The notes under the pieces are model-generated. The model had not been told where the DNA came from. It did not search any database and saw nothing but the letters and a program-made list of their open reading frames with translations. This document shows positions 9,337 through 25,655 of a DNA stretch of 64,000 nucleotides, piece by piece. The position numbers were made by a program, and so were the translations under genes. Numbering within the stretch: the stretch's first letter is position 1; the number at the start of each line of letters is the position of its first letter. The stretch spans positions 1,869 through 65,868 of the forward strand of contig CALCLY010000031.1 in NCBI GenBank assembly GCA_937966555.1. The letters run 5' to 3'. The stretch is from an uncultured Clostridia bacterium (GTDB lineage: Bacteria; Bacillota; Clostridia; UMGS1883; UMGS1540).

Positions 9337-10113
9337 ATGAAAAAAATAATATCTGTATTATTATGCTTAATGTTATGTACAATTACGGCGTTTGCCGAAA
9401 ATAACGAAAAACCCGAGACCGTGGGCGGAAAAATCACCCTTACGCAGTTTTTGGGTGTAAGCCGCGAAGATGCCGAGAACGTGGCAATAACCGTAAACTC
9501 CGAAACAAACTATATTGACAAAAATACGTTTTATGATATAAGCGACAGCTTTATACTCACCTCTTCTTTTGAGCCGAAACAAATGGCAAAAGAAGGAATA
9601 TATATAACAATTAAAAAAACAGACGGAAGTTTTGCATATGCTTTTATTGATTTTAACGGCGGTGTTGACAGATACGGCGCTTTAATGAGCAGAAACCCGT
9701 ACGCACTGTATATGGCTGACGACCTTTCGAAAATAAGCGCAATAACATCACAAGGAAAGCCGCAAATTACCGTAAATGAAAACCTTGATATAAGAGTAAA
9801 CGGGCAAAAAGCCGAATTCACACTCTCTCCGTTTATAACCCAAGAAGGCAGAACACTCGTTCCGGCGCGAGAAATATGCGGATATTTAAATAAAAATATA
9901 ATCTGGCTTGACTCTCCGGCACGAATTTCCGTTTCATCCGGCAGTGACATTCTTGTATGTGCAATCGGTGAAAGTGACTACAGCATTAACGGAAACTTAT
10001 ATGAAACCGATGCGGCGGCACAGCTTATTGACGGACACGCATATATTCCGCTGCGCACCCTTGCTGAGTTTTTAGGGTATAGTATCAGTTTTATTCCTTC
10101 TTCAAATTTATAA
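9337..10113 (+). CDS. Secreted protein with a C-terminal copper-amine-oxidase N-terminal-like domain
   Basis: Signal peptide MKKIISVLLCLMLCTITAFA. C-terminal repeats GRTLVPAREICGYLNKNIIW and GHAYIPLRTLAEFLGYSISF match the Cu_amine_oxidN1 'stalk' domain common in clostridial surface proteins. Confidence 0.7.
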   Translation: MKKIISVLLCLMLCTITAFAENNEKPETVGGKITLTQFLGVSREDAENVAITVNSETNYIDKNTFYDISDSFILTSSFEPKQMAKEGIYITIKKTDGSFAYAFIDFNGGVDRYGALMSRNPYALYMADDLSKISAITSQGKPQITVNENLDIRVNGQKAEFTLSPFITQEGRTLVPAREICGYLNKNIIWLDSPARISVSSGSDILVCAIGESDYSINGNLYETDAAAQLIDGHAYIPLRTLAEFLGYSISFIPSSNL

Positions 10114-10125
10114 ACCATAACATAA

Positions 10126-10155
10126 AATGGGCTGTTTAAACAGCCCATTTTTTTA
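10126..10155. terminator. Bidirectional terminator hairpin ATGGGCTGTTTAAACAGCCCAT + T-run
   Basis: Palindrome GGGCTGTTTAAACAGCCC is flanked by A/T runs between convergent genes (9337-10113 + and 10163-17134 -). The same 18-nt palindrome recurs at 35863-35880. Confidence 0.65.
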
Positions 10156-10162: not shown

Positions 10163-13100
10163 CTATTTAACAATACCGAGCCAGAGAATCTTTGCTACTT
10201 GTTCTCTCAAAACAAAATTGAGAGGTTTAAGTGTTCCGTCTTCATATCCCGATACTATTTTGTTCTGCGTGAGGAAGCTTACTGCATCCACAGCGTATTC
10301 CGAAACAGAAGCGCCGTCTGAGAACGAAACATTTCCGCTGCCTTTTTCTCCTTCGAAAAATACTCTGTAAACAAGCGTCATAGCATCCTGCCTTGTTATT
10401 TTGTCGGAAAGGTTTGCGGCAATTCCCGTCTGTGTCTTGCTGCCCTGAAGCCAGCCTTTTTTATATGCCGCAGCAGCATAGGGTGCCGCCCATCCGGCAA
10501 TTGAAGACGCGTCCTCAAACATGCTTACATCGCTGTCATCAACATTTTCTCCCATAGCGGCAACAAGAAGCTTTACAAATTCTCCTCTTGTTATTTCGTT
10601 TGAAGGCTTGAAAATTTTAATTCCGTTTTCAATATAGCCGTCTGTAAGTTTTGCAAGTCTTAAGCTTCTTATGTAAAGCGAAGCCCAGTTTCCGTCTATA
10701 TCCGCAAACTCGTCTCCCATGTTCGGGTTTTCTATAACGACATATCTGCCTTCACCGACATAGCCCGCGCTTATCATTTTTCTCTGCGCGTCATAATCTC
10801 CGCCTATATACATCCACTTTCCTATGCTGTCGGCAAAATAGTATACTCCGATATTATCGGTATTTGCATTGTCTTTAACCTCAAGGTCAACAAGCATTGC
10901 AGGTGCTTCCTTAAGCGTTGCCAAAGCGACTACATCGGAACAAATCTTTCCGCCCTGAGGCAAACCTTCAAGATGTGAATTTGTTCCTGTATCCGTTCCG
11001 TGAATTAGATAGTTTTCTTCTTTTATATCACTGCCTTTTGCAAACACCGTATTTCCGCTTTTCTTTGACGTAAAGTCAATACCGGCATACATCTTGCCTG
11101 CGTCAACATCGCTGCCCTCGCCAAGCATTGAAGAAACTTTCTTTATAAGTTCTTTAACTTCCGGAGGAAGTTCCGTTGATACTGCCGATGAGCTGTGTTT
11201 GCCGCCATTGCCCTTACCGCCGCTTTCGGATTGCTCGCCGACTATTCCCGAATCATAAATATCTGTAAGCGTGGTACTTCCTACATTCCATTCCGCACTT
11301 ACGGAGAAGGAATTGTTTCCGTTCGGTATAACAACGGCTCCGCTGTTTCCGCTCTGAACGGTGAGCGCAGCTTCTGACGGGTCTGACACAAGCTTCCACT
11401 TGAGTCTGTCTTTAATAATGTCAATCCCGAGCTCTTTGCCGTTTTCGTCAACACCAACTGCCGTAAGCTCTGTTGCGGTTGTTCCCTCAGGCTTTGTACC
11501 GAGTATTTTAATACCGCTTATTTTAGATACCGCATTGTTTACAACGGTGGCAATATGAGTTGCGCTGTTTCCGTTTACATCTGTTGCAACTATCTTTATT
11601 TCATGCGAATATTTGGGCGCCAAAACTTTAATTGTTCTTTCAAAAGCAAAGTCGGGATTTGCGCCGTTTACGTTTTCAACCACTCCGCCTGCAACTTTTG
11701 TATCATCGAGATATACTTCAACACTCGTTCCTTCGTCTGTAAGGATTTTCACCGGTATTCCGACATTTGGGTCATAAAGCGATCCGTTCTGCGGATAAAG
11801 CACTTTTATGTCTGCCGGGATTGAGTCAACAGAGAATTTGCGTGTTTCAACAGTAACGTCTCCTGCCTTATTTGTAAATACAATATCCACAATATGGTCG
11901 CCGTCCGAAAGATTGAACGCCGCATAGCCGTGACCGCCCGTTGATGAATCGTTTTTCAGCACATCGCCGTACTGTTTTTCGTCAATATCAAATCTTACGC
12001 TTACCTCATCGTTCGGCTCTGCTCCCATGTTTAATATATCATACTCGATAAGTATATTCGAATTTCCTATCTGAGTGTATGATACGTTTCTGTCATCGGT
12101 TTTATTCTTGGCATTGAAAGACGTGATGTTTACGTTTATCTGCGGAGGATTCGGAACAGGAACCATTACATCGGCACTCTGCACCTCGGCACTTCCGTAG
12201 TATCCGCTTCCCTCTTCCGCATTTACGGCTGTTGCTGTAACATAATATGTTTTACCGGGTTCTATAACCGATGTACTTACGGCAGCGCCGCTGCTGTCTA
12301 CCAATGTGCTCTGACCTTTGAAGTAAGTGGAAAGAGTACTCTTTCCTTCTTCCGCCGCAACATATCCGCCTATGCCTTTAAGGCACTCGCTTGTACCGTC
12401 ATCATTTCTTCTGAACACGCGGAAATTAATTCCCGTAGCGTTTTGCGGAACATAGCTTGTTACGTTAATTCTTCCGTCTCCGCCTGCTGTTGCCTGAACG
12501 GCAGGTGCAGCCAGTGTATTCGGATTGTCAAAGTGCATTTTGGCTTTGGAATACACACTTGTGTATACCGAGTCATTCAAAATTGAATCAAGCCTTACAA
12601 TATAGTCTCCGCTCGGAACATTTATTTCAATGTTTTCTCCGGAAGAAGAACCTTTTGCCATTTTTACTATGTATCCTGCATGCTCTGTTGTTGCGGTATT
12701 TCCGTTTTCATCCGTATATTCCGTCATAGCCGGATTTCCGTTTTCATCGCACGGAACAAGCAGAAGAGTTACGTCCGCCTTGTCATCGGCTGTCCATGAT
12801 GTGCTGAGCGTATTGCCCGCAATGCTTGCCGAATCAATTGAAAGTTTGGGCGTTACCGTAGGAATTGAAAGTACGGTATAGTCACTTATTTTTGCACCGT
12901 TTACACTTTCTATTTTCCAGTTGCCGTCCATGAGCATGTTGTTTGAAACATTTACGTATACATACTTTTTAACAGTTCCCGTTTCGGCATCTGTTTTTTC
13001 ACTGAGAAGCATATTGGCTCCTGCAGCATTGTTCTCTTCCTGAGTTTTATCATAATCATATATAACGGTTCCGTATTCCGTACCGTCAGGCTTTGTTACT

Positions 13101-16100
13101 TTAAGCTCGGGCGCTGTGTCACCGTCATAATAAACTCTGTAAACAACATCTTTTCCGGCCATGAGCACCGTATCAACATTATTTTCGAAACTTACAGAAT
13201 TTAAAAGTGTCTGCGGTTTTGCATATGATGAACCGACAGCTCTGTCAACGCTTGTTGCAACAACGCTTGCGCCCTGACCTATACCCATATACTGAATATT
13301 TCCGTTTTCATCCTGTATCTCACGAACCTCAAGGAAACTCATTGTATGCGATGTTGTATCCGAGTTTTCTCCCAAAGCCTCCGTATCAAGGTCTATATCC
13401 TCAAGCTCGTCAACTTCACTTCCCGAAAGCAGTCTGAAATTGCCTTTGTCATAATAATATACAAATCCGCCGCTGAAAATAAATACCTTTATTCCGCCCG
13501 CTATAAACTTATTTGTTATAGCAAGTGTAATGCCTGCGAGTCTTCCGAGTCCCGGAACATTAAGCGAACCGTCAATCTTTCCGAGGAATGCAAATTCCGG
13601 AGTTGTTGTAAACGCCAGTGTTACTCCGCCTTTAACCACTCCCGAGAACAAATCAACCGTGCCCGACAGCCGCATTGTAAACCCTGTTGTCCAATCCATT
13701 TCGGCTTTTGCAATAAACTTTATCTGGTCAAAGTTTGCGGGCGACCCCGTTACGGCAAAGGAAAGTCCGTTTCCTGAGACAGACATATCTCCCTGCAGAT
13801 ACATAACGTTCAATATGTCTATAAGCGCCATAACGCTTACCGTTACGGGCGGTCTTCCTTCTCCCTGATAATTAATGGAGCTTGCCAGATCCGAAATACC
13901 TCCGCCGAGACCGCGTAAATTAAGCGTGCCCGGAACAATCGGAATTACAAATCCTTTTACCTCAAGATATATGCTGTCAAGGCATATCTTACCGTTGTTC
14001 ATTTCGGCAAGGCTCATGCGGAAAGCCGTACTTAAAGGTCCGATGCCGATACCAAGGTCCACGCCGGCATGGAATTCATATGTGTTAAACGAAGCGCCCA
14101 GACTGAACGCCGAAAGTCCGCCCTTGTTCTTGCTTCTTGCATTATCCGCATTCTGATTCTGACCTGCAGCGGTTGTTGCCGCACTGCTTCTTGAAGAAAC
14201 TATCTGAGATGATGTTGGGTTAGCCGCCGCAGCGCCGTTGCTTATCGTGGAATTGTTATTCTGTTTTCCGCCTGCCGGGAACACGGATTTTGGCAATTCC
14301 AGATTAACCGTTGCCGCAACTCCGACAAAGCCGGTTTTTATGTGTGTTGCGTCATTTTTATCCTCATGTTCACCGAAAAGCACGGAATCTATCGAAACAC
14401 CGAGCGAACCGCCGTCTCCGAAAGCTCCTGCTTTTTTTGTGGCGGAATTTCCGTCTTTAAAGACATTTTTCTTGCTTGCGTTATTGTTGTTATTATTGTT
14501 GTTATTGTTGTTATTGTTGTTATTGTTATTATTGCCGCTGTTGTTATTATTGTTGTTTAGATTGTTATTGCGATTATTGTTTTCATTTGAATTTGAAGCG
14601 GTATTCCTGGTTCCCGCAGAAGGTGTTCCCGTTGATGTTCCGGAAGATTCGCCCTGTGAGCCTTCGGACGAACTGTCACCCTTGCTCATGCCGAGCGGGA
14701 ATGAAACCTGACCGCTGAAATCTATCGTATATCTGCCATCCTGACAACCCAAAACACCGTAGTTTAAGTCAAATATGAAACCGCCGAGGTTCTGCAAAAG
14801 CCATCCTCCGCCGAGAAGCTGAAGCTTCGGTGCTTCAACACTGAAGTCATTTGTATCATACGAAAACAGTGCGTCCATGGGAAGTCTTATCATGAACTTA
14901 TGTTTCCATATTGTTGAAGCGCCTATAACGCTGAGATCACCGTCACCTTCAAGCTTCATAACATTAGGCAACCCGTTTGAGCCAAACTCCGCAACCATTC
15001 GAAGCGGAGTGTTTGAATCATAGTAAAGAATCCTGTTTACTTTGATTCCGTCGGAGCCGCCCACGGTTTCAAATCCCAGAAGATCGGGATTATTTTTCTC
15101 TGCACTTGTGCTTATGCAAAATCCTTTTTCTTTATTTGCACTTGCAGCGTCTTTTCCGTCTTTATAAAGAATTTTAAATATGCCTCTTGCCTCCATCAGC
15201 ATTTCGCCGTCTTCGCCGAGAGACTCTTTATATTCCTGAAACTGCTGTTCCACAGACTTTAAGCCGCTTTCACTCATTCCCGTATCAACCGTGAAAAGGC
15301 GCATATCATAATCGCGCTTTTTCGATGTTCTTGCAACAACGGCTATTGAATATCCGCGGTTTTTGTATTTTACGTCATTTGTTGAAGTTATGCGCTGCGA
15401 AGAATCGGAGAATACTATATCCTTCATACCCTCAAGGTTATTCTTGAATTTAATGGTAAGCGTATATTCGCCGAGTCTTCCCTCCATATCAACCAAAAGA
15501 CCGAGCTGCCTGTTTTCGGTGTCAACGGAGCAGCTGAAGCTGTCTATATTTATGACTTCTCCGCTTACAACATCCGTTAAAAACGCTGTCCAGTTTGATT
15601 TGTCCGACAATGCCTTAAAGTTTTGGCCGTAACCCATAACGCTGAAATACGAAGTGCCTTCGTAATATATGGTTGTGGGCTCTATCCCCGTAAACGCGAT
15701 GCTGACTTTTGAATCGCCAAGAGGAGGCATTGTTATAACTTTTGAGCCCACAGTCGGAACGGGAGTTGCGTCACCCGTCAGAGAAAACGTTATTTTCCTT
15801 GTATCTATTGACGTGCGAAGCGTATATCCTTCTTTTGGTTCATAAACAATGTCGGGAGCATCCGCGTCTTTGTTATTCTTATTTTTTTCATATACAGGGC
15901 GCGCTTTAAGCTTAACGGGAATATTTCTCCTGATTTCGCCGCGGTTTATATTTCCTATGCTCAAAACTTCCGATTCTTCCGTTTCGTCCGCCGTCCATAT
16001 TGCCGGCTCCTGTACCATATTAAGCTCGCTGTCCAAAACCTTATCCTGGAAGATCATCTGCAGCTTGCCGTTTATTATGGGACTTGACTCCGCATCGGAA

Positions 16101-17134
16101 TTATCAACCGTAACATACAGTGTTATTTCACCGTCATTTGCATAACCGTCTTTTTTCTCATTTGCTTTCAAAAGCTCTTTCTGAGTAACGGTCATTACAC
16201 AGTGCTCGGGAGAAGACTCCATTCCTCCGAGTTCTCCGACACCGTACATTGTATCAACCGACAGCGTCTCGCCGGCCTCAACCACTTCGGTATCGTATAT
16301 TATGGATACCGCACTGTCCGGATAAAAATACTCGTTATAATAATCGTCAAAATTCATACCCGGGTTCACGGTATAATCCCAAAGTGTATTTGCAAGGTTA
16401 TACCAGTGTGCCATCTGAACCTTATCGGGTGTACGGCGCATAGACTTATGCTGCAAAAGACCGTACGCGGTTGTTGTTGAGAAATTTACACTGTCGGAAA
16501 CGGAATACCATTCGGGTATACTGTCACCTGTAAATTCCGTCTCGCGCGAAATTGCGGTTGTTCCCCCGTTTTTGAAAAACGAACCTGCATCGTTATCCGC
16601 TGTCTTTGTATCAAGCAGAATTCTTATGCCAACCCATACGGCAGAGGAATTTGAATTTGTGTATGAATACTGAATATTTGCATAACCGCCGGATTCGCTT
16701 GCCGTATTTCCGTTTATTATTATATTTTGTGTAACTTCAACACCTTCTACCGCCCATTTTGAAACAATGGCGCGTCTTTCGGAGTCAAGCTGCACAACCT
16801 GCGGAGCTGCGGTAACCTTTCCCGCAGAACTTCCGTAAATATAATCGTGCGTTTCCGCATTAGCCAATCCGGCATTTTTTATGATACGTACTGTTGTATA
16901 TGAAGTTGCAAATTGATCGTCTCCGTCATACAAAAGCGGCTTATCATCGTCAAATCGTTTAGCCGGGATACCCTTTTTTGTATTGATGCCAAAGGAGGAT
17001 CCGTCAGCTTTTGATACAACTTCTATATAGTTGTTGTCAATTTTCAACTCATTATCCGCCAGCGCCGTGCACGGGATAATTCCCGCGCACAGAAGCACTG
17101 CCAGAAGCAAGGATATTATTTTTTTCATGTGCAT
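10163..17134 (-). CDS. Giant cell-surface protein (2323 aa): signal peptide, multiple Ig-like/beta-rich regions, Ser/Gly/Asn low-complexity linker, uncharacterised ~700-aa beta-rich region, three C-terminal SLH domains
   Basis: N-terminus MHMKKIISLLLAVLLCAGIIPCTALA. C-terminal ~190 aa hold three SLH repeats (ITRGEFVKLLVAAMG..., ITRQDAMTLVYRVF..., LREQVAKILWLGIV). RBS AAGGAGGT lies 11 nt after the upstream gene stop, i.e. translational coupling. Confidence 0.85.
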   Translation of the reverse strand: MHMKKIISLLLAVLLCAGIIPCTALADNELKIDNNYIEVVSKADGSSFGINTKKGIPAKRFDDDKPLLYDGDDQFATSYTTVRIIKNAGLANAETHDYIYGSSAGKVTAAPQVVQLDSERRAIVSKWAVEGVEVTQNIIINGNTASESGGYANIQYSYTNSNSSAVWVGIRILLDTKTADNDAGSFFKNGGTTAISRETEFTGDSIPEWYSVSDSVNFSTTTAYGLLQHKSMRRTPDKVQMAHWYNLANTLWDYTVNPGMNFDDYYNEYFYPDSAVSIIYDTEVVEAGETLSVDTMYGVGELGGMESSPEHCVMTVTQKELLKANEKKDGYANDGEITLYVTVDNSDAESSPIINGKLQMIFQDKVLDSELNMVQEPAIWTADETEESEVLSIGNINRGEIRRNIPVKLKARPVYEKNKNNKDADAPDIVYEPKEGYTLRTSIDTRKITFSLTGDATPVPTVGSKVITMPPLGDSKVSIAFTGIEPTTIYYEGTSYFSVMGYGQNFKALSDKSNWTAFLTDVVSGEVINIDSFSCSVDTENRQLGLLVDMEGRLGEYTLTIKFKNNLEGMKDIVFSDSSQRITSTNDVKYKNRGYSIAVVARTSKKRDYDMRLFTVDTGMSESGLKSVEQQFQEYKESLGEDGEMLMEARGIFKILYKDGKDAASANKEKGFCISTSAEKNNPDLLGFETVGGSDGIKVNRILYYDSNTPLRMVAEFGSNGLPNVMKLEGDGDLSVIGASTIWKHKFMIRLPMDALFSYDTNDFSVEAPKLQLLGGGWLLQNLGGFIFDLNYGVLGCQDGRYTIDFSGQVSFPLGMSKGDSSSEGSQGESSGTSTGTPSAGTRNTASNSNENNNRNNNLNNNNNNSGNNNNNNNNNNNNNNNNNNASKKNVFKDGNSATKKAGAFGDGGSLGVSIDSVLFGEHEDKNDATHIKTGFVGVAATVNLELPKSVFPAGGKQNNNSTISNGAAAANPTSSQIVSSRSSAATTAAGQNQNADNARSKNKGGLSAFSLGASFNTYEFHAGVDLGIGIGPLSTAFRMSLAEMNNGKICLDSIYLEVKGFVIPIVPGTLNLRGLGGGISDLASSINYQGEGRPPVTVSVMALIDILNVMYLQGDMSVSGNGLSFAVTGSPANFDQIKFIAKAEMDWTTGFTMRLSGTVDLFSGVVKGGVTLAFTTTPEFAFLGKIDGSLNVPGLGRLAGITLAITNKFIAGGIKVFIFSGGFVYYYDKGNFRLLSGSEVDELEDIDLDTEALGENSDTTSHTMSFLEVREIQDENGNIQYMGIGQGASVVATSVDRAVGSSYAKPQTLLNSVSFENNVDTVLMAGKDVVYRVYYDGDTAPELKVTKPDGTEYGTVIYDYDKTQEENNAAGANMLLSEKTDAETGTVKKYVYVNVSNNMLMDGNWKIESVNGAKISDYTVLSIPTVTPKLSIDSASIAGNTLSTSWTADDKADVTLLLVPCDENGNPAMTEYTDENGNTATTEHAGYIVKMAKGSSSGENIEINVPSGDYIVRLDSILNDSVYTSVYSKAKMHFDNPNTLAAPAVQATAGGDGRINVTSYVPQNATGINFRVFRRNDDGTSECLKGIGGYVAAEEGKSTLSTYFKGQSTLVDSSGAAVSTSVIEPGKTYYVTATAVNAEEGSGYYGSAEVQSADVMVPVPNPPQINVNITSFNAKNKTDDRNVSYTQIGNSNILIEYDILNMGAEPNDEVSVRFDIDEKQYGDVLKNDSSTGGHGYAAFNLSDGDHIVDIVFTNKAGDVTVETRKFSVDSIPADIKVLYPQNGSLYDPNVGIPVKILTDEGTSVEVYLDDTKVAGGVVENVNGANPDFAFERTIKVLAPKYSHEIKIVATDVNGNSATHIATVVNNAVSKISGIKILGTKPEGTTATELTAVGVDENGKELGIDIIKDRLKWKLVSDPSEAALTVQSGNSGAVVIPNGNNSFSVSAEWNVGSTTLTDIYDSGIVGEQSESGGKGNGGKHSSSAVSTELPPEVKELIKKVSSMLGEGSDVDAGKMYAGIDFTSKKSGNTVFAKGSDIKEENYLIHGTDTGTNSHLEGLPQGGKICSDVVALATLKEAPAMLVDLEVKDNANTDNIGVYYFADSIGKWMYIGGDYDAQRKMISAGYVGEGRYVVIENPNMGDEFADIDGNWASLYIRSLRLAKLTDGYIENGIKIFKPSNEITRGEFVKLLVAAMGENVDDSDVSMFEDASSIAGWAAPYAAAAYKKGWLQGSKTQTGIAANLSDKITRQDAMTLVYRVFFEGEKGSGNVSFSDGASVSEYAVDAVSFLTQNKIVSGYEDGTLKPLNFVLREQVAKILWLGIVK
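14473..14585. repeat. Imperfect (GTT/ATT)n trinucleotide microsatellite encoding a poly-Asn tract (NNNNNNSGNNNNNNNNNNNNNNNNN) in the giant SLH protein
   Basis: ~110 nt of gttattgttgttattgtt... on the + strand equals AAC/AAT codons on the - strand. The repeat is in frame, so slippage would change linker length, not reading frame. Confidence 0.6.
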
Positions 17135-17145
17135 TTACCTCCTTC

Positions 17146-20100
17146 TCAGCCTGCAATAAATACATACATTATCTGTGTGTTTCTGTTTTCGGTCTGCATA
17201 AACAGAGTATACATACCGGCTTCTTTCTGTTCAAGCTTAATTTTGGCATTCGGCAGTACAAGCGATTTCATCGAATGTCCTTTAAGCTGTGCTCCGTTGT
17301 AATAACCCTTTACAAAAGCATAAGAAACTTTTTTGCCCGATTTTTCGGCATTTACAAATGTTAAATCAAGCGAATCTGTAATCCAGTAATTTGTCTGCTC
17401 GCCAGGTATCAGAATATTTCCGTTTATTGCCGCAAATACATCGTCCTCACCTATAACCTGAATGTTTCTTGTTATAACCGTTTTATTGCCGGCATTATCC
17501 GTACCCGTTACGGTTACGGCATATCTTCCCGGAACATTTGCGTCAAACGTACCGTAATCTATTTCAGGTGTTTGGCTTACCGCTCCGGACTCCGCGTCAG
17601 AAACCGTCATTTTTTCAAATTCATTCTTATTGAATTCGCCTTTATTCACATAAACATCGCGTGTCCCTTCGTATGTTATCTCAGGAGGCGTAACGTCAAC
17701 ATATTTTACTTCGATATTGTATGTTGCGCTAATACCTGCGTCATTTGTAAGGGCAAACGAATATGTTCCGTTTTCAGTGGGCGTAAAGGTTATTTTGTCG
17801 GATTTTGCGCCGTTCTGAACAATATAAGACCTGATGCCCGATGCTCTCTGTGTTTCGGCAGCTACAGTAATTTCGGGCGGAACATTTGTCCATGATTCGG
17901 GATTTCCGCTGTGCGTAGCCTTCGGCGGCTCTGTGTCAATACACGAAACGCTTGCCGTAAGTGAATTTACATTGCCGGCATCATCCGCAAACTTAATGAG
18001 GTAATTTCCGTTTGATTTAACCGTAATGTATTTTCCGTGTTCGGCGCCCGCAACAGTTATGGTGTCGTTTTCGCCGCCGCTTAAAATATCGCCTGCAGAT
18101 TTTGCGGAAAGAACTATTGTTGCATAGCCGTATGCAGTTTCAAGTGTTCCGCTATCCGTTACAGCCTTGTTAGGTTCAACTGTGTAATCAAGCTCCGGAA
18201 CCGTTTTATCAATATTGTCAACAGACACAGACAACCATTCGGTTTCGTTTCCGCTTGTATCACGGAATTTAAAGAGTGTGATACCGTTATTCTCAAAGCT
18301 GTATGTCACATATGTTGAAAATGCATTTGAATATCCTTTTATAACTGCTCCGTTTTGGTCTGCAACCATATAGTCCGCAAGCTTTGTCAGTGTAATATTA
18401 GCTGTTACATCCGCATTTGTTTTGCGCGTCATATCGGTGCTGTAGGAAATGTACGCCGCAGGAGGTGTTCTGTCTAAATCCTTAACCTCAAGAGAAACCT
18501 CAACCGTATTGCCGACAGCGTCAGCAAATACAAGTTTTGCAAAACCGTTATTTGCAAATTTCAGCGAAGCCGTAAGGTTTTCTCCGCTTCTGTCTATGAA
18601 TACATCGCTTGCGGCAAAATCTTTTCCGCTGCTGTCGCGCCCTGTAACCGATACAAATTTCAGTTCTGAAGCGTTTGTTATGTTATCATTCACGTTAACA
18701 AGCGCCGTAACACTGTCTTTTTCAAGCGGCGTAGCGGAGTTATATATGTAATCCGCATCGGCTTTCGGCGCCTCATTGTCAAACTTGATACCGCTTATCG
18801 TAAGTGTGCTGCGATTGCCCGCTTTTGATGTGTAATCGTAGTGGTATTCGCCGTTATCGGATATTCCGATAATGTCAAGAAGCTTTCCTTCCTTATCATA
18901 TATATATGCTTCTGCTTTTCCTCTGAGGTTTCCTCCGATATACACATAGTTAAATGTGCTGTAAGCATAATCATTCATATCGGCAGTCAAATCAAATTTA
19001 TCAGTTATATCCTCGGTTGCATTCATGATCTTTGCTGTTATCTGAGCAGGTGTTTTATCTATATAATCCACGTTAACCGGAATTTCCTTAACATTTCCCG
19101 CCAAATCGTAAAGCTTAAAAATAACCCAGCCGTTATCATAGAATGTATAATCCGTTTTGCCTTCCATGCGTGTGTACATATCAATACACTCAACTTTAAT
19201 TTCCGATGAAGATGATTTATCATCTTCAATATCGAATATGTTTACCGTAACATCGGTGTTTACAGGCGAACCGTCTGCCGGCTTTTGAGGCGAGTAAATA
19301 ACCTTGCACTCGGGGGCTTCCCTGTCAAAAAAGTCATAAACATATGTCTGCATGCCCTCCGCCTTTTTGTCCGGATCACTTGCGGCTGTCGGGTTAATTA
19401 CCAAAAATTCAAAGCTGCCGTTTTCCGTTACGGTAAGTGTAAACTGTTTGTAAAGCGGCTTTGTACCAGTGTATTCCGCCGGTGCCGTAACTTCTGTACC
19501 CGAAGCTCCTTCGGGCAAATCCGCCAAATAATATTCGTCATATATGCCGCCTGTCGGTACAGTAACGGTTATCTCGGCGCTGTCAGCATTTGTATATTTT
19601 TCAGTAAACTCGCTTCCCATTACATTTATTTTGATATTGTCCTCGGGAATGCTCGGCAATGTAGGATCAATCCATGTAATGTCCACGGGAAGTTCGGTTG
19701 TCCTTCCAAGCTCGTCAAGCAGACTGTAGCGCGCATTTATATTATTTCTGAACTTAAGTATATGATTTGTTGTAAATCCGCTGCCGTCAATGCTCATATA
19801 GCTCTTCATGTATTTCTGCGCTATAAGCTCTGCCGCACTATGTCTTATTGCACAGAGCACACTTGCCGCCGATGGAACTGCGTTTATTTCAGCCAGTGTC
19901 AGTGCATTATCGTACAAATCATTATACGGATTCTCATAAAGCACATAATCTGCAAAGTACGGACGAAGTGCCTCGTTAATTTTATTAAGATCCGCTTCCT
20001 CCTGACCCGCAAACGGCGACTGATAAGCAGTGTCGGTCATTTTGTTCAAAAGCGTTATATCAAAATCGTCACCGAAAAATTCGTAAACTTCACTTTCGGT

Positions 20101-23100
20101 CAGCGTATCTGAGTATAGCGGGTTTCTTATAAGAAGTTTTCCGCTTTCTGCCGGAGTAAGCGAATCGGCAGAAAATTCCGAGAAAGTATAAGAATCAAAC
20201 TCTTCCGGATATGCCAGAACATTAATTCTGTAACCGTCCGCAACAGGGTATTTCGATTCTCCTTCAAAATCTCCGCCCTCTGAAGCAAGCCCTGCTCTGA
20301 GCAATGTAATAATCGCTTCCTGTTCTTCATTTGTATAATCGCCGCGAAGCGAACGCAAATCCGAATATCTCTCATATTCTGTTTCTATTTCACCGGTTTT
20401 GCCGTAATCTGCATTATAGTAACATTCGTTTATAAGATAATCATAAATATCAAGCGTCGGAACATTTGTAGTGTTATATTCAAGATAATCATCCGTTGTC
20501 GGTGAATTTTTGAACACTGCCTTTTCTTCGTCTGTAAGCTCTGTGCCTGCGTTCACCTTCTCTGTTATAGTTTTATACATTGCACAAGCTTCTTCAAAAG
20601 TAATTGTCTTTAAAGCACCTTCATATACGTATGTATATCCTTCGCTTCTCTTTTTCTGAACGCTTTCCTGCATTGCAGAAATATTATCTTCAGAATCAAC
20701 CGTATACTGAAGCAGTGTCGGTATATCGGTTTTCGCCGTCATTGTAACGCTTCCGCCGGTTGCTGTAGACGGAGTGTACGAAGAGAGCAGCTCTGCCGTA
20801 TCGTCGGATGCATTTATGGTTGCAATAAGCTTTGTCTCCACATTGCCCGCTCTGTCTCCTACTCTCACATATACATTATAAGTTCCTGTCGGCAAAGCTC
20901 CGTAAGAAAGTTTATACTGAAGTTCTTTGTCGTTTACTTCACCGGAGGACATATTGTAGCTTTCGGAAATACCGTTTGTCGGTTCAGGTTCATAACTCGG
21001 AGCCGGACTGTATGACGGAACAGGTTCCGAGCTTTCTCCTGATTTTCCTGTCTTTTCAAGCTTAGCATAAGCAAAACCCTTGCTGTCGCCAAAGTATCCG
21101 CCGTTTTCAAAACCTGTCGGATCACCGTTTTCGTCAAACGTTGTCGGTCTTGCGGAAGCTTCTTCCGTGAAGAAATCATTATCCGAAGGTTCACCCTGTG
21201 TTATTGCTGCGCTGAGCACGGTCAGAGAATCATCATCTTTTGCCGTAAACACAAACGATCCGTATTTTGCCGCACCGTTTTTGGGAATCTGAGCCGATGA
21301 GTTGAGCTGAAGTTCTGGAATGTTTCTGTCGAAACAGTTAATATCAACCTGCTTTACGGAACTTCTTCCGGCTTTATCCGAAATCGTTATTTCGACAACG
21401 CCGTTTTCGGATACTTCAATTACGGCTTTCCCCGCACGCGGATGTTCCTTTAAAGTACCGCCCGAAATGCCTATTGTTATCTCCCCGGGTGTTTCATATG
21501 CATCAGTGTTATAATTAATATCAAATGTTACGGTCTTGGCATTTGTCTTACCGGATATGTTTGCTGTATCTACATATGTCACTTCGGGCGCATATTTGTC
21601 AAGCACAAAATCAAGTGATGCCGAAGACATATTGCCCGCCATGTCATATACCTCAAACGTATAACGGTATTTCATTACACCTTTATCGTAAACCACATCA
21701 AAATCATTAACAAGCGGATTTGTTACCGTTGCCGTACATCCATTTGTTACGCGTTTTCTTTCCGTAAACTTAAAACCGTTTTTGCTGCGGACAATATCAA
21801 GCGCATCTTTTGCCTCATCGTCAAAAGCGGCGGAAATGTATTTTAAATCCGCAAAATCTTTTAATATGAATGTTCCGTCACCAAGCTGATTTATGTTTGA
21901 AGGCGCAACAGACAATGATTTTATTTCGGGTTTTGCAAAATCAACGCGCATATCATTGCTCCAGAATGTGCTCTCATGCCCGAATATGTCACGCACGGTT
22001 AATTTAATCTTTGCATTCTGCGCATTTAAATAATCTTCATTTTCGCCGAATTCTTCATTGAAGTTTATCGGCACGGTCTCGTTTATACTGTTTAAAACAT
22101 ATGTTTTGGCAAGTTTGTCTTTAATAAAGAGCTCTGCCTTCGGCGCTCTTGAAGATGAAAAATCAATATTGCCGTTCTTGGCATAAGCTTTGTAAGCGGC
22201 GCCGTCATCATCAAGGATGAATTTAACTTCATAGTTTGAATTCACACCGTCTCTTTTTCCGGTCGTTTCTATTGAAGCTGTGGGCGCTTGTGTATCAAAG
22301 AATACATTTATTGTATAATCCTGTACCTCTCCCTCCGGCTGAAGAATCACACGTGCAAAAAGTGTATATTCTCCCGAAAAACTTCCGCCAAATTGGTTTT
22401 GAATCTCTTCGGAAGCAAAGTCAACGCTGTTTAAGTTTGACGGTGTTAACGTTACGCTCTGCGTTGCATTGTTCAAAGTAGCGGTTGAACCCTTCACCCA
22501 GCCGTAACTTATATCAAACTTTACATCACCGTTTTGAGGAATCTTTACACCTTCTAGTTTTATGCTGTGTTTGTCGGAAAGGGGTGAATAATCGTCAACA
22601 AACCGCAAGTCAAAATCTCTGTCAGCCGTTACAAAATCTTCTGATTTAACGGGCTTTTTTGTTTTATTGTAAAATTTATCATAGAAAGTTGCAGTAACAT
22701 TCCATTTGTTATAACTTCCTTTGTCAGCCATGATGTTTATAACATGATCTGAAGCATCTGTTTTTCTGTTTTGATCCGCTCCGCTTGTAACATCATGAAG
22801 AACATATGTAATAAGAGGAAGAACTGTTCCTTCTCCGGGGTCGGTCACGTCATATTTCACCGCAACGTTTCCGCCGCTTCTTTCGGTGCTCACACTGTTT
22901 ATTACGGGTCCTGTGCTGTCTATGTAGGCTCTTATATCTTTCTTATCCGCATTTGTAAGAGTATTTCCGGCAGCATCATTTATCGAATACTCAATATAAA
23001 CCGGAAGATTTTCGGGGTAATCCGAAATCATTGTAATATCGGAAAGTGAAACTTTCGCCGTATTGCCGCTTGACACGGTTCCGAGCGTAAGTGTTTCCGC

Positions 23101-25050
23101 GGCATTGCTCTGTGACGTGCCTATTTTAAGCTTATGTTTGCCGCCCTCATCATAATATACAAATGAAATCTTCACTCCGTTTGTATCGAATCCACCGGCA
23201 TCGGTAAACGTAATGGTGGAATCGCTTCTGAATTTTGTATCCCAATTGCCGCTTACCTTTGTTCCTTTTACGGAAGGCGCTGCGGTGTCTATCATTATTC
23301 TGCAGTTAAACGGCGCAAGAGTGCTTGCATTTCCTCTGTCAACCTTTATAAGAGAAAAATCTACATCCATATTTGCAATATTTTTAAGTGCGGCGTTTCC
23401 GCATGTAACGGCATCTTTCGTAAATGTAAATGCTCCGGACGAATCAAATTCGCCCGCAAAATTCACATAATACTCGTCAAGTCCCGCTATTTCCTGCGGT
23501 GTGTATTTAAAATACAATTCCGTTGAAGCTTCCGAGTTCATTCCGAAGGCATGTGAATTTTTATCAATACCGACTGTTCTCGCGCTCACAAGCCCGGCAT
23601 AAACATACTTATCGGTAGCTTTTCTCTGTTTATCATAAACCCTGAGCTTAAGTTTTGTATCTCCGGCTCTGAGACTGTTTTTCTGAATCTCGTCATTAAG
23701 CACTATTCTAAAAATCGGACCGGTTGTGCTCTTTCCGAAAATAACAGGCTGAAGCTCTGTTTTGCTGCTGTTTGTTTTTATCTCGGAAGGCAATGTTGCT
23801 CCGAACAAATTGCAATCGGCATTTTTGTTTGTCTTTGTGGGATAAAACTTTCTGTCAGTGAAAGAATCGCTTGCAAGAAGAGTTTTTGTATCGTCCACAA
23901 TTTTATTCTTGTTCTCTTCTATTGAAGCTATCGAGCTGTCGGCGATATTATTTCCGGCAACGTCTGTGATACAGTCTTTGCTGTTTAAAATAAGACCGAC
24001 AGGCTGAGCATAAACGTCAAGCTTTACCTTGTTTTGTGTATTGTCGGGAATTTTAAACTCAAATATAGCTCTGTATCCTTCGGCACTGTTTCCCGATAGT
24101 CCCGTGCAGTTTGCCGTGAAATAGCCGTCCTTTTCGGGATTTCCTTTGATTTTAAGCTTAATGTCATTCTTCTTTTTAAGAACAACTTTTTCATCGAAAT
24201 CCACATAGAATTTAATTGTATCCCCTATTGCCGCATACTTTGCAGAACCTGCAACATTTGAGCGGAATGTAAATCCGTCATCAAGCACACCTGCCTTTGT
24301 TGCCTTAGGTCCCTGCACATCACGCAAAAATACCCTTACCTTCTGAACAGAGCTTTTATTGAACTTTTTAAGTCCTTTTCTCTCCGAACGCAGGTCCATA
24401 TGAAATCTGTTTATATCTTTATTAACCGATATCCAGCCGTCGGACACTTCTCTTGTTCCTCCGTACCAGTTGGACTCTGTTGTAAGCTCCTGCTGAATTG
24501 CTGATTTTCCCGAAGCGTAAAGACGCAGATTTGCAATGCCGACATGCTTGTTGGTTGTTCCCTTGTAGTTATTCGTCTCTGCGGCTATCGCCATCTCAAG
24601 GTCGCCCTTTCGAACGAGCTTTAAAATATCTTCGCTGAATTTTCCGGAAAAGTCAACCTTATAGTTTTTCTTGTTATTTGACGGATTATATATAGCATAA
24701 AAATATTTTCCTTTATCGAGATATGCACCGTAATCCGTCTGAGACGTATCATAAACAAACACCATTCCGTCGCTGGCGTAGTCATACATATCTTTACCTC
24801 TGTTAAAACGCATCTGGTTAAAAACAGAACGGCTTGCGGAAATACTTCCTATATTCTTGTCATACTCTCCCTTTTTCAGAATCTTTCCGCTTTGAAGGTT
24901 TACGGTACCTGTTTTGCCCTTTGGCACATTTGCCCAGTTTACTTCGCTTCTGCCGCCGAAAGACATAGTGTCCGCAAATGCACCGGCGGGTATAAGCGTA
25001 AGTCCTATAAAAAGGGCCATCGCTGCACTTAAAAACCTCATTTTTTTCAA
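17146..25050 (-). CDS. Giant secreted/surface protein (~2634 aa from TTG 25050; alternative ATG at 25041): signal peptide then many Ig-like/cadherin-like beta domains; no recognisable wall anchor
   Basis: Signal peptide KKMRFLSAAMALFIGLTLIPAGAFA. RBS GGAGG (25062-25058) lies 7 nt before TTG 25050. Beta-domain boundary motifs recur (DTTAPE..., DKTAPQITA, DNEAPKAD, DRTPPAAYI, DKTVPELD, DTEPPKAT, DVTPPEIT), suggesting >=10 tandem Ig-like modules, plus a Pro/Ser/Tyr-rich segment YSPAPSYEPEPT. Stop is 11 nt before the next gene's RBS. Confidence 0.8.
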   Translation of the reverse strand: MKKMRFLSAAMALFIGLTLIPAGAFADTMSFGGRSEVNWANVPKGKTGTVNLQSGKILKKGEYDKNIGSISASRSVFNQMRFNRGKDMYDYASDGMVFVYDTSQTDYGAYLDKGKYFYAIYNPSNNKKNYKVDFSGKFSEDILKLVRKGDLEMAIAAETNNYKGTTNKHVGIANLRLYASGKSAIQQELTTESNWYGGTREVSDGWISVNKDINRFHMDLRSERKGLKKFNKSSVQKVRVFLRDVQGPKATKAGVLDDGFTFRSNVAGSAKYAAIGDTIKFYVDFDEKVVLKKKNDIKLKIKGNPEKDGYFTANCTGLSGNSAEGYRAIFEFKIPDNTQNKVKLDVYAQPVGLILNSKDCITDVAGNNIADSSIASIEENKNKIVDDTKTLLASDSFTDRKFYPTKTNKNADCNLFGATLPSEIKTNSSKTELQPVIFGKSTTGPIFRIVLNDEIQKNSLRAGDTKLKLRVYDKQRKATDKYVYAGLVSARTVGIDKNSHAFGMNSEASTELYFKYTPQEIAGLDEYYVNFAGEFDSSGAFTFTKDAVTCGNAALKNIANMDVDFSLIKVDRGNASTLAPFNCRIMIDTAAPSVKGTKVSGNWDTKFRSDSTITFTDAGGFDTNGVKISFVYYDEGGKHKLKIGTSQSNAAETLTLGTVSSGNTAKVSLSDITMISDYPENLPVYIEYSINDAAGNTLTNADKKDIRAYIDSTGPVINSVSTERSGGNVAVKYDVTDPGEGTVLPLITYVLHDVTSGADQNRKTDASDHVINIMADKGSYNKWNVTATFYDKFYNKTKKPVKSEDFVTADRDFDLRFVDDYSPLSDKHSIKLEGVKIPQNGDVKFDISYGWVKGSTATLNNATQSVTLTPSNLNSVDFASEEIQNQFGGSFSGEYTLFARVILQPEGEVQDYTINVFFDTQAPTASIETTGKRDGVNSNYEVKFILDDDGAAYKAYAKNGNIDFSSSRAPKAELFIKDKLAKTYVLNSINETVPINFNEEFGENEDYLNAQNAKIKLTVRDIFGHESTFWSNDMRVDFAKPEIKSLSVAPSNINQLGDGTFILKDFADLKYISAAFDDEAKDALDIVRSKNGFKFTERKRVTNGCTATVTNPLVNDFDVVYDKGVMKYRYTFEVYDMAGNMSSASLDFVLDKYAPEVTYVDTANISGKTNAKTVTFDINYNTDAYETPGEITIGISGGTLKEHPRAGKAVIEVSENGVVEITISDKAGRSSVKQVDINCFDRNIPELQLNSSAQIPKNGAAKYGSFVFTAKDDDSLTVLSAAITQGEPSDNDFFTEEASARPTTFDENGDPTGFENGGYFGDSKGFAYAKLEKTGKSGESSEPVPSYSPAPSYEPEPTNGISESYNMSSGEVNDKELQYKLSYGALPTGTYNVYVRVGDRAGNVETKLIATINASDDTAELLSSYTPSTATGGSVTMTAKTDIPTLLQYTVDSEDNISAMQESVQKKRSEGYTYVYEGALKTITFEEACAMYKTITEKVNAGTELTDEEKAVFKNSPTTDDYLEYNTTNVPTLDIYDYLINECYYNADYGKTGEIETEYERYSDLRSLRGDYTNEEQEAIITLLRAGLASEGGDFEGESKYPVADGYRINVLAYPEEFDSYTFSEFSADSLTPAESGKLLIRNPLYSDTLTESEVYEFFGDDFDITLLNKMTDTAYQSPFAGQEEADLNKINEALRPYFADYVLYENPYNDLYDNALTLAEINAVPSAASVLCAIRHSAAELIAQKYMKSYMSIDGSGFTTNHILKFRNNINARYSLLDELGRTTELPVDITWIDPTLPSIPEDNIKINVMGSEFTEKYTNADSAEITVTVPTGGIYDEYYLADLPEGASGTEVTAPAEYTGTKPLYKQFTLTVTENGSFEFLVINPTAASDPDKKAEGMQTYVYDFFDREAPECKVIYSPQKPADGSPVNTDVTVNIFDIEDDKSSSSEIKVECIDMYTRMEGKTDYTFYDNGWVIFKLYDLAGNVKEIPVNVDYIDKTPAQITAKIMNATEDITDKFDLTADMNDYAYSTFNYVYIGGNLRGKAEAYIYDKEGKLLDIIGISDNGEYHYDYTSKAGNRSTLTISGIKFDNEAPKADADYIYNSATPLEKDSVTALVNVNDNITNASELKFVSVTGRDSSGKDFAASDVFIDRSGENLTASLKFANNGFAKLVFADAVGNTVEVSLEVKDLDRTPPAAYISYSTDMTRKTNADVTANITLTKLADYMVADQNGAVIKGYSNAFSTYVTYSFENNGITLFKFRDTSGNETEWLSVSVDNIDKTVPELDYTVEPNKAVTDSGTLETAYGYATIVLSAKSAGDILSGGENDTITVAGAEHGKYITVKSNGNYLIKFADDAGNVNSLTASVSCIDTEPPKATHSGNPESWTNVPPEITVAAETQRASGIRSYIVQNGAKSDKITFTPTENGTYSFALTNDAGISATYNIEVKYVDVTPPEITYEGTRDVYVNKGEFNKNEFEKMTVSDAESGAVSQTPEIDYGTFDANVPGRYAVTVTGTDNAGNKTVITRNIQVIGEDDVFAAINGNILIPGEQTNYWITDSLDLTFVNAEKSGKKVSYAFVKGYYNGAQLKGHSMKSLVLPNAKIKLEQKEAGMYTLFMQTENRNTQIMYVFIAG

Positions 25051-25114
25051 TGCAATTCCTCCTTTTGGTTTCATTTTTTTTGCATCCGTTGTGTTGTAAT
25101 TGATTATTTGTTCA

Positions 25115-25144
25115 ATTATATCACAAAAACCACTCCTCGTCAAG
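25115..25144 (-). promoter_or_regulatory. Consensus sigma-A promoter for the giant-protein operon (TTGACG at 25144-25139, 18-nt spacer, TATAAT at 25120-25115)
   Basis: Read on the - strand: TTGACGaggagtggtttttgtgaTATAAT, ~55 nt upstream of the start codon at 25050. Confidence 0.5.
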
Positions 25145-25182
25145 CTGTTCAACAAATTATTTCATATTTTGGAATATATACA

Positions 25183-25228
25183 AAAACCGAAGAAAAGCAA
25201 AATAAAAATTGCTCCTTCGGCTTTTCAA
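25183..25228 (-). terminator. Rho-independent terminator (stem CCGAAGGAGCAA...TTGCTTTTCTTCGG + U-run), palindromic and likely bidirectional
   Basis: The hairpin at 25187-25220 is followed by TTTTTG on the - strand. It terminates the small-ORF transcript and copZA read-through, immediately upstream of the giant-operon promoter. Confidence 0.7.
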
Positions 25229-25320
25229 TTCCCGATCAAGGGAATACCTTTCTGTATATAATTCACCCGAAAAAAACTTCTCGCATACAAGTACCCAAAC
25301 AATGTAAGCAATATGCCCAT
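25225..25320 (-). CDS. Putative small hydrophobic protein, 31 aa (MGILLTLFGYLYARSFFRVNYIQKGIPLIGN)
   Basis: Not in the ORF track (<60 aa). ATG at 25320 is preceded by RBS ACGGAGGGA with 7-nt spacing. The stop sits directly against the terminator hairpin, and a dedicated consensus promoter lies upstream. Confidence 0.4.
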   Translation of the reverse strand: MGILLTLFGYLYARSFFRVNYIQKGIPLIGN

Positions 25321-25358: not shown

Positions 25359-25387
25359 AGTATACCATTTTTTTTACGAAAGGTCAA
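25359..25387 (-). promoter_or_regulatory. Consensus sigma-A promoter (TTGACC 25387-25382, 17-nt spacer, TATACT 25364-25359) driving the 31-codon ORF
   Basis: - strand: TTGACCtttcgtaaaaaaaatggTATACT, located just downstream of the copZ stop. Confidence 0.45.
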
Positions 25388-25648: not shown

Positions 25649-25655
25649 TATAAAT

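Follow-up and report, generated by a model that had tools for sequence, protein, structure and literature searches.

Paired genes for giant surface proteins in Clostridia, one product SLH-anchored and carrying a predicted barrel-like domain

Two giant genes, here called A and B, lie back to back on the minus strand of the window, the 64-kb stretch of DNA analysed as a whole. They are accompanied by the following elements:

25182..25225, minus strand: intrinsic terminator, a hairpin with a downstream U-run (RNA fold dG -19.8 kcal/mol, z -5.2, 0/200 shuffles as stable)
25115..25143, minus strand: promoter of sigma-A type that carries an extended-10 TG (TTGACG-17 nt-TATAAT; 11/12 consensus positions matched)
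17146..25050, minus strand: gene A, coding for a giant secreted protein of 2634 aa without a recognisable anchor (TTG start, RBS GGAGG)
17135..17145, minus strand: intercistronic spacer with the RBS GAAGGAGGT, from the sequence
10163..17134, minus strand: gene B, coding for a giant SLH-anchored protein, 2323 aa by ORF translation (2321 aa from the likely true start, ATG 17128)
10124..10151, both strands: bidirectional terminator hairpin between B and a convergent gene (12-bp stem; dG -17.4 and z -4.2 on the minus strand)

A and B form a single minus-strand transcription unit, a tightly coupled two-gene operon as proposed in the preliminary description, with a promoter, a short RBS-containing spacer and flanking terminators. 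The unit is discrete, since one terminator lies upstream of the promoter and another just past the B stop; the former closes an upstream copZ/small-ORF unit and insulates the A-B operon. The consensus promoter previously placed directly upstream was recovered at 25143..25115, approximately 65 nt 5' of the TTG start of A. Its -10 box (25120-25115) falls inside the maximal A open reading frame (17146..25155, minus strand; 2669 aa), and a GGAGG motif at 25062-25058 lies 7 nt 5' of TTG 25050, the most likely start, which yields the 2634-aa product. The RBS of B, formerly assigned to the last codons of A, is instead located in the spacer immediately after the A stop codon: TGA occupies 17148-17146, GAAGGAGGT the adjoining 17145-17137, and there are ATG codons at 17134 and 17128. 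The latter appears the likelier start of B, as its distance from the RBS is 8 nt (versus 2 nt for ATG 17134) and the residues M3 and K4 are nearly invariant in relatives; the spacer measures 11-17 nt depending on which start is used. With this adjustment to the start of B, the coordinates first given for both reading frames hold.

Sec signal peptides, as first noted, are visible in the translations of both A and B (MKKMRFLSAAMALFIGLTLIPAGAFA and MKKIISLLLAVLLCAGIIPCTALA, each followed by D). Protein A has 73 full-length homologues sharing 41-99% identity, and four of its regions can be delimited:

24973..25050, minus strand: signal peptide, residues 1-26, ending AFA before D, read from the translation
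24151..24972, minus strand: N-terminal domain, residues 27-300, the best-conserved part of A in the close family (58% mean identity)
19651..20700, minus strand: central acidic stretch, residues ~1451-1800, not Ig-like and the least conserved part of A (35% mean identity)
17149..17790, minus strand: C-terminal cap, residues ~2421-2634, delimited by the A-family HMM and alignment

The preliminary description regarded A as a long string of Ig-like modules lacking an anchor. Ig-like modules are probably present, with Pfam matches that all fall below cutoffs (Big_13 24.6 bits, Bact_surface_Ig-like 19.4), in families that recur in 8 to 12 of 12 scanned relatives; eight DxAGN...D..P module-junction motifs also occur, with none between residues 1225 and 1982, and BLAST detected no internal repeats. 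The absence of an anchor likewise stands: Pfam and NCBIfam searches found no LPXTG, SLH, CWB, choline-binding or T1SS retention module, and the protein ends in ...MYVFIAG without a sorting signal. However, A is not purely Ig-like. It also contains a conserved N-terminal domain of ~270 aa that has no Pfam or PDB match, the poorly conserved acidic stretch (~1450-1800), and a conserved two-domain cap composed of a Bact_surface_Ig-like domain and a terminal ~100-aa domain ending ..YTLFMQTENR..MYVFIAG. The N-terminal domain and the cap are the most conserved regions of A; mean identity across the interior is 35-48%.

Protein B has 34 homologues, with 13 genome loci, and is organized as follows:

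16220..17056, minus strand: N-terminal head, residues 27-305, of galactose-mutarotase-like supersandwich fold
14990..16219, minus strand: residues 306-715, all-beta Ig-like modules (AF2 secondary structure, pLDDT mostly 75-90)
13415..14989, minus strand: barrel-like beta-meander domain, residues ~716-1240, with ~22 long amphipathic antiparallel strands
14408..14689, minus strand: loop insertion 1 of the barrel-like domain, residues 816-909, Ser/Gly/Asn-rich and disordered (pLDDT 22-40; 25% identity among relatives)
14123..14293, minus strand: insertion 2 of the barrel-like domain, residues 948-1004, low-complexity with short predicted helices (pLDDT <50)
11210..13309, minus strand: stalk, residues ~1276-1975, presumed tandem beta-sandwich modules (Ig-like Pfam matches in relatives)
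10715..11209, minus strand: Gly/Ser linker and ~150-aa pre-SLH region, residues 1976-2140 (44% identity among relatives)
10166..10714, minus strand: three SLH repeats forming the cell-wall anchor, residues ~2141-2323 (Pfam SLH 57 bits, cutoff 20.8)

The SLH anchor was originally attributed to B alone, as three C-terminal repeats, and both the Pfam match and profile comparison agree, with the B family profile spanning the whole SLH module of Bacillus anthracis Sap (6bt4/3pyw; ~175 residues, E 1e-28). TRAE-type motifs, which SLH modules require to bind the secondary cell-wall polymer, can be read from the translation of repeats 1 to 3 (ITRGEF, ITRQDA and VLREQV), and R2183, R2248 and R2310 within the repeats vary little or not at all. 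A scan of ~30 ORFs in the 64-kb window gave no csaB-like gene, CsaB being associated with pyruvylation of that polymer. The pre-SLH region returned no family match. Ig-like Pfam families (Big_13, Glucodextran_B, Big_2/4) were detected in relatives of B by a search that does not give their positions along the protein; in the long representative P0175, the Ig-like matches that could be located lie C-terminal to its barrel-like domain. The best-conserved parts of B are the supersandwich head and the barrel-like domain, the latter above all.

The head (27-305) conforms in its predicted structure to the supersandwich, a beta fold of ~250-300 residues, though it shares only 7-13% identity with galactose-mutarotase-like domains and has no Pfam match. 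It lies at approximately residue 35 in 107/109 long representatives with the barrel-like domain. Invariant residues in B include H243, E198, D175, D182, R171 and W244. Supersandwich domains can be non-binding structural modules.

The beta-rich region downstream of the head had been described as unassignable to any known domain, with structure prediction and family searches suggested as a check. Neither as a single sequence nor as a profile does it match Pfam, NCBIfam or the PDB, including their outer-membrane protein families, and no assignment to known families such as Big_2 or cadherin emerged; these searches place the region in no described family. AF2 predicts an antiparallel meander of ~22 strands, for which the nearest structural analogues are outer-membrane barrels, at moderate confidence (mean pLDDT 62, pTM 0.40, 27-sequence alignment). 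On this model the region is not the beta-solenoid that had been put forward, whereas 'pore-like' would be a fair description of the predicted fold. An Asn repeat was also thought to act as an interdomain linker preceding ~700 aa of beta sequence. The Asn run exists, at residues 860-885, but the domain (~720-1240) begins before it, so the run belongs to a loop insertion (insertion 1) rather than to a linker between domains. Insertion 2 is conserved despite low model confidence (61% identity among relatives). A large conserved domain whose predicted fold recalls an outer-membrane barrel is present in these bacteria although they have no outer membrane.

Conservation of the gene pair, proposed earlier as a check, was borne out across related genomes. 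In 12/12 related Clostridia MAG loci that include upstream sequence, the gene immediately 5' of the B homologue, in the same orientation, is a homologue of A, even where A identity drops to 30%. Where a B-like gene occurs at a distant locus, its upstream giant partner shares with A only the C-terminal ~215 aa (5/5 examined): the A-family HMM matches just the cap region in partners from Paenibacillus, Bacilliculturomica, L016, L018 and L021 (iE 1e-8 to 1e-18). The genes flanking the pair differ between loci. The one short relative without the barrel-like domain (P0032) also lacks an A-like partner, at a single locus. This pattern supports a functional link between A and B.

Anchoring also varies within the B family. 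SLH repeats are fused to the protein in some members, encoded by a separate ORF after the gene in Bacilliculturomica, and replaced in L021 by a dockerin and a cohesin-like SLH protein. The L021 locus is an overlapping three-gene operon: the family member P0156 ends in a type I dockerin, and its gene overlaps by 4 nt the next one, which encodes a 543-aa SLH protein with a cohesin-like N-terminus. To judge from these gene arrangements, the B-like family uses standard Gram-positive wall-tethering modules interchangeably, as would be expected of a wall-tethered complex. Relatives with the barrel-like domain occur in monoderm spore-forming Firmicutes (Paenibacillus and Bacilliculturomica); the 64-kb window itself encodes a SleB-type spore cortex hydrolase, and no outer-membrane genes were seen in it.

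The preferred reading, given an even chance of being correct, is that the operon encodes a conserved two-protein, wall-anchored surface appendage or fibre of spore-forming gut Clostridia. B would serve as the wall-anchored base, its C-terminal triple-SLH module binding a cell-wall polymer and its ~700-residue beta-sandwich stalk projecting outward a distal unit formed by the barrel-like meander, further Ig-like modules and the carbohydrate-binding-type supersandwich head. A, exported by Sec, would be held on B through its conserved two-domain cap, with its variable Ig-like array and conserved N-terminal domain pointing outward as a functional tip that probably adheres to glycans or other cells. 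While B presumably tethers A physically in this arrangement, A could instead escape into the medium or be retained by another receptor.

The two products might alternatively act independently, as giant adhesins or S-layer-associated proteins that share no more than a transcript and form no complex, with A shed or attached to the wall or S-layer in some unrecognised way. A and B indeed share no sequence similarity, no A-B fusion protein occurs among 147 representatives, and A has its own signal peptide and conserved N-terminal domain. Yet the pairing persists from Clostridia to Bacilli until only the A cap is recognisable, while neighbouring genes change, and co-regulation alone would not keep just the C-terminal 215 aa of a partner; independence is accordingly considered doubtful. 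On the side of the two-protein appendage, a more specific and distinctly speculative proposal concerns residues 716-1240 of B, which may form a closed ~22-strand barrel that works outside membranes in monoderm Firmicutes, as a socket capturing the A cap in the manner of a LapA/LapE-style plug in a barrel, here set in a wall-anchored stalk. Such a barrel could also descend from the outer-membrane barrels of a diderm Firmicute ancestor, re-used after loss of the outer membrane.

Other explanations of the barrel-like domain are less probable again. It could be a membrane-inserting or pore-forming module, as the preliminary description had suggested, that is carried on a long stalk and enters a host or competitor cell membrane or the bacterium's own envelope, thereby anchoring the fibre or delivering something. 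This is improbable given that relatives occur in monoderm spore-formers without BAM machinery, that the domain occupies an internal position between soluble Ig-like modules, and that the model reaches Foldseek TM-scores of only <=0.44, with a putative closure and no aromatic girdles evident in the strand listing. Among the Foldseek matches are the ApoB100 beta-belt and the lipid transporter LptD, and nearly every strand is aliphatic on one face; both features favour an open groove or belt (of beta-taco or ApoB type) that binds lipid, lipoglycan or another hydrophobic polymer and is neither A socket nor pore, a reading considered equally improbable. The fold could even be a modelling artefact, with 716-1240 comprising several ordinary small beta-sandwich modules whose divergence hides them from Pfam and the operon encoding an ordinary giant Ig-repeat pair. 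Its overall confidence scores, shallow alignment and low TM-scores are in keeping with this, as is a covariation analysis that did not confirm the strand pairings. Against it, strand pLDDT is 70-87 over ~400 residues, strands of 10-18 residues exceed typical Ig length, and the region, as an indivisible unit of ~240+ aa, keeps a fixed position across 437 clusters and is the most conserved part of B, making an artefact very improbable.

Among known systems, B resembles the SLH-bearing S-layer and S-layer-associated proteins (B. anthracis Sap, EA1 and Bsl; Geobacillus stearothermophilus SbsB) in combining a Sec signal peptide, a triple SLH module with TR[AGQ][ED]-like motifs and a large, beta-rich remainder; its profile matches the SLH structures of Sap (6bt4 and 3pyw, E 1e-28) and SbsB (4aq1, E 2e-12). 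In contrast to the N-terminal SLH modules of those proteins, that of B is C-terminal, and B is a ~2300-aa protein with an obligate giant partner gene; the barrel-like domain and supersandwich head are found in no characterised member of this type. The dockerin of P0156 and its cohesin-like SLH neighbour in L021 recall cellulosome anchoring, in which a dockerin protein is held by a cohesin-SLH anchor such as SdbA or OlpB, whereas the B of this window has fused SLH repeats, no dockerin and no glycoside hydrolase catalytic domains. Galactose-mutarotase-like domains constitute aldose 1-epimerases, which have a catalytic His/Glu pair, and occur at the N-terminus of polysaccharide lyases and of GH94, GH15 and GH65 enzymes; the B head differs in not being joined to a catalytic (alpha/alpha)6 or TIM domain.

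SLH modules are combined with beta-barrels in OmpM of Negativicutes and SlpA of Deinococcus, the outer-membrane tethers of diderm Terrabacteria (PMC10628300, PMC9388160). Those proteins have an N-terminal SLH module, a coiled coil and a C-terminal barrel, whereas the order in B is reversed (barrel-like 716-1240, SLH 2141-2323), with ~900 residues between the two modules, no predicted coiled coil and no sequence similarity. As the relatives of B live in monoderm spore-formers, there would be no outer membrane in which to embed, and a tether of the OmpM/SlpA type was rejected on these grounds. LapA/LapE and MpIBP of Gram-negative bacteria are giant Ig-repeat adhesins retained by a barrel; such systems depend on type I secretion, an outer-membrane TolC-like pore and an N-terminal retention module. 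Like these adhesins, A is probably a very long Ig-like array that lacks its own anchor and carries a conserved terminal module, and a separate barrel-type protein could hold it; it differs in being exported by Sec, in its conserved cap being C-terminal, and in its putative socket lying within wall-anchored B. By analogy, LapA/LapE-type retention is the closest parallel for how the A-B system might work.

The two giant ORFs reported for this minus-strand operon are real, and lie at the positions first assigned to them. Gene B, the downstream gene, encodes the SLH-anchored protein (2323 aa), and gene A, the upstream gene, encodes a secreted protein of 2634 aa if the start favoured here is used. 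The elements of the operon, with the ORFs taken from translation, are:

10163..17134, minus strand: gene B ORF, 2323 aa
17146..25155, minus strand: gene A maximal ORF, 2669 aa
17148-17146, minus strand: TGA stop codon of gene A
17145-17137, minus strand: ribosome-binding site GAAGGAGGT, read from the sequence directly after the gene A stop
17134 and 17128, minus strand: candidate ATG start codons of gene B

The TTG at 25050, which would yield the 2634-aa product, is most likely the start of gene A, given a GGAGG 7 nt upstream and a promoter -10 box that falls inside the longer ORF. For gene B, the second ATG (17128) appears to be the better start, since it lies 8 nt from the ribosome-binding site and M3/K4 are nearly invariant among relatives. 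The tight spacing of the cistrons in the preliminary description is thus retained, with its 11-nt gap widened to 11-17 nt, while the ribosome-binding site is found in the spacer and not within the last codons of gene A. The sigma-A promoter noticed upstream is upheld (TTGACG-17-TATAAT with an extended-10 TG; 11 of 12 positions match), as are the signal peptides, which are of typical Sec type in both A (AFA-D) and B (ALA-D). A strong terminator hairpin precedes the promoter (dG -19.8, z -5.2), and a 12-bp bidirectional terminator follows the gene B stop.

The surrounding DNA is chromosomal, with a GC content of ~42%, and encodes ffh, trmD, rimM, rplA, rplJ and nusG; these housekeeping genes, together with a SleB-type spore cortex hydrolase, indicate that the host is a spore-forming Firmicute. 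Other features of the window are:

6716-10113, plus strand, convergent with gene B: BlaI-like repressor and 281-aa short BlaR1 M56 peptidase-domain protein, then two more genes
25225-25320, minus strand, between copZ and the operon promoter: hydrophobic small ORF of 31 aa (MGILLTLFGYLYARSFFRVNYIQKGIPLIGN) with a ribosome-binding site
25394-27890, minus strand, immediately upstream of the operon: CopZ-like HMA chaperone and CopA-type P-type ATPase
48426-49112, plus strand: SleB-like spore cortex-lytic enzyme (PG_binding_1 and Hydrolase_2)

The small ORF, with its terminator, lies between the CopZ/CopA genes and the operon; this ORF has its own promoter-like site (25387..25359; 10/12 matches) and the strong terminator lies directly 3' of it. 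Of the two genes 3' of the BlaI/BlaR1-like pair, one encodes a 393-aa product that matches no family and the other a product of 258 aa carrying a Cu_amine_oxidN1 domain. BlaI/BlaR1-like genes, then an SLH protein, also lie 3' of the A-B pair at two other loci (L007 and L020).

Relatives of A and B are labelled only 'hypothetical protein' in the collections searched, cluster members included. Full-length relatives of A number 73 (39-99% identity). For B, 34 relatives are detectable, of which 17 are full-length (~2300-2500 aa, 45-99% identity) and derive almost entirely from gut metagenome assemblies; more distant ones belong to Bacilliculturomica massiliensis and to several species of Paenibacillus. 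When one genome per species was scanned with an alignment of the 11 closer B sequences, 13 loci were recovered, all in MAGs assigned to uncultured Clostridia, Clostridiales or Eubacteriales; these come from human gut (Hadza and Nepali), the caecum of buffalo and a digester. For 12 of these loci the contig extends 5' of the B homologue, and in every one an A homologue directly precedes it on the same strand, so the two genes are indeed conserved together. The pairing persists with A identity as low as 30%, and the flanking genes are otherwise not conserved across loci. At one Eubacteriales locus (L019), a PMT-family protein O-mannosyltransferase-like gene lies 5' of the pair and a GT2 glycosyltransferase 3' of it (146-1927; 17619-18590), which hints that surface proteins of the A/B type are O-glycosylated.

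The association extends to five distant loci (Bacilliculturomica L014, Paenibacillus L015, L016 and L018, and the dockerin variant L021), where the B-like gene is in every case directly preceded by a gene for another giant protein (1764-2563 aa; for L018 the contig holds only the C-terminal 248 aa). In these partners the A-family HMM match is confined to the C-terminal ~215 aa (iE 1e-8 to 1e-18). This A cap aligns as a Bact_surface_Ig-like domain followed by a terminal domain of ~100 aa ending in ..G.YT..VQT..R....VFI, and a profile search with it returned only short metagenomic fragments without names. In a single case (P0032), a short relative with the B head and SLH repeats and without the barrel-like domain has no A-like partner. 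The Paenibacillus-type loci L015 and L016 carry a 7TMR-DISM sensor kinase and a BTAD-type response regulator 5' of the pair, accompanied in L015 by a small trypsin-like protease. Both also encode a third giant protein 3' of the pair, unrelated to A and to B; that of L015 has 3171 aa and SLH, that of L016 2495 aa and no SLH match.

B consists of a galactose-mutarotase-like supersandwich head, Ig-like modules, a barrel-like beta-meander domain, a stalk and the C-terminal SLH module. The SLH anchor previously proposed is confirmed (Pfam SLH, 57 bits; family profile against the Sap SLH module, E 1e-28) and is the only part of B with a sequence-level assignment: no Pfam or NCBIfam model covers either the head or the barrel-like domain. 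Anchor type varies within the family: SLH is fused in the window protein and supplied by a separate ORF 3' of the gene at L014, while the L021 protein ends in a dockerin and the next gene, overlapping by 4 nt, encodes a cohesin-like SLH protein. A lipoprotein anchor for B was rejected: neither LLC nor IPC fits a lipobox, and conservation does not extend to the Cys residues. A profile of the barrel-like domain (residues 1005-1245), searched against 1.84 billion representatives, matched 437 clusters (151 with E of at most 1e-30); the domain nearly always occupies residues ~850-1150 in proteins of 2000-2600 aa. Among 109 long barrel-containing representatives, 107 have the supersandwich at ~residue 35, 73 have SLH by HMM and none has LPXTG. 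Altogether, ~440 protein clusters (50% identity) share a set architecture, and their partner gene is obligate. The supersandwich also occurs at residues 1240-1490 of an alpha-2-macroglobulin-like protein (P0033, 3311 aa; A2M_BRD, MG2, PKD and CARDB domains), and is thus a mobile module not restricted to the A-B operon.

A was initially read as a long string of Ig-like modules with no recognisable anchor. No anchor motif is present, and BiPBP_C, Bact_surface_Ig-like, Big_13 and Big_3_2 give weak recurring matches in 8-12 of 12 A relatives, none reaching threshold for A itself; eight DxAGN...D..P junction motifs mark module boundaries. The string is not uniform, however, since residues ~1450-1800, an acidic stretch unlike Ig modules in appearance, show the lowest conservation in A (35%), against 58% for residues 27-300, the highest, and 54% for the cap. 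BLAST self-comparison detected no repeats, the modules being too divergent to count in this way, and no similarity between A and B; a PDB sequence search with the A-family profile gave nothing meaningful.

The best-supported reading is that A and B form a two-component wall-anchored surface fibre. B would be tethered to the wall through SLH, displaying the barrel-like domain and the carbohydrate-binding-type head at the end of its stalk, while A would be held by its conserved cap, with its variable Ig array and N-terminal domain facing outward. Three observations underlie the inferred docking of A: distant partners retain nothing recognisable of A but the cap, pairing outlasts the change of neighbours, and anchors are interchangeable. 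The first two also weigh against A and B being independent adhesins that are merely co-transcribed, an arrangement that their separate signal peptides would allow; this is the strongest of the rivals and rather unlikely.

The remaining alternatives concern the barrel-like domain. In the AlphaFold2 model of residues 640-1300 (mean pLDDT 62), ~22 long antiparallel strands of 10-18 residues span ~723-1237 at pLDDT 70-87, broken by two low-confidence insertions (811-909 and 948-1021). These long hairpins do not coil, so the beta-solenoid suggested in the preliminary description was rejected. Its Asn-repeat linker is likewise a loop within the domain, which starts before the repeat: the N-run belongs to the Ser/Gly/Asn insertion 811-909, 25% conserved among relatives. 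The second insertion includes a segment that may serve as a plug of the lumen or as a tract for glycosylation:

14123-14293, minus strand: low-complexity Ala/Ser/Thr/Asn/Gln segment, B residues 948-1004, modelled at pLDDT <50; conservation among relatives is nevertheless 61%

On each strand, an aliphatic face alternates with a small or polar one. The G..YY[WY] motif (1220-1229), with invariant Y1226 and Y1227 on the penultimate modelled strand (1220-1227), resembles the signal on the terminal strand of outer-membrane proteins; in B, however, it is internal. By sequence, B belongs to no outer-membrane protein family. A membrane-inserting or pore-forming module is improbable, ranking next after independent adhesins. 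An open lipid-binding groove, with which the aliphatic face would agree, is placed just below it and is similarly improbable. A more radical reading, in which the domain would be a genuine barrel working as an extramembrane socket and perhaps left over from a diderm ancestor, is unlikely. Least probable of the rivals is that the fold is a modelling artefact. Foldseek against the PDB gave weak matches only, a PDB sequence search with the barrel profile nothing meaningful, and the top couplings in a mean-field DCA of the barrel region (162 sequences, Neff ~148), aimed at strand pairing and closure, were low-complexity or block-gap artefacts even after masking; the domain is nonetheless the most conserved part of B (67-70% identity versus 53% for the stalk), with a GLGGGI.DLA.TI...PP.T motif at its middle (alignment A6).

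Giant surface proteins largely set the attachment of gut Clostridia to fibre, mucus and neighbouring cells, and the A-B pair occurs commonly in gut metagenomes, both human (Hadza, Nepali) and animal (buffalo caecum). If the domain is truly a barrel, it would represent an unusual use of this fold in bacteria without an outer membrane, and a concrete means of holding an unanchored giant fibre on a Gram-positive wall. Whichever reading holds, the pairing of A cap and B core provides a useful annotation rule.

Literature searches on SLH, barrel, monoderm and giant proteins found no description of the A-B system, only work on diderm OmpM/SlpA and unrelated Paenibacillus enzymes. B is not an OmpM/SlpA family member, differing from those proteins in the order of its domains, in having no predicted coiled coil and in the envelope of the host. 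Giant SLH-anchored surface protein systems of Gram-positive bacteria are already known as a kind; what is new here is, first and foremost, a conserved family of barrel-like domains that lacks annotation and occurs in lineages of which some are monoderm; the supersandwich head, likewise unannotated, and the obligate partner gene are new too.
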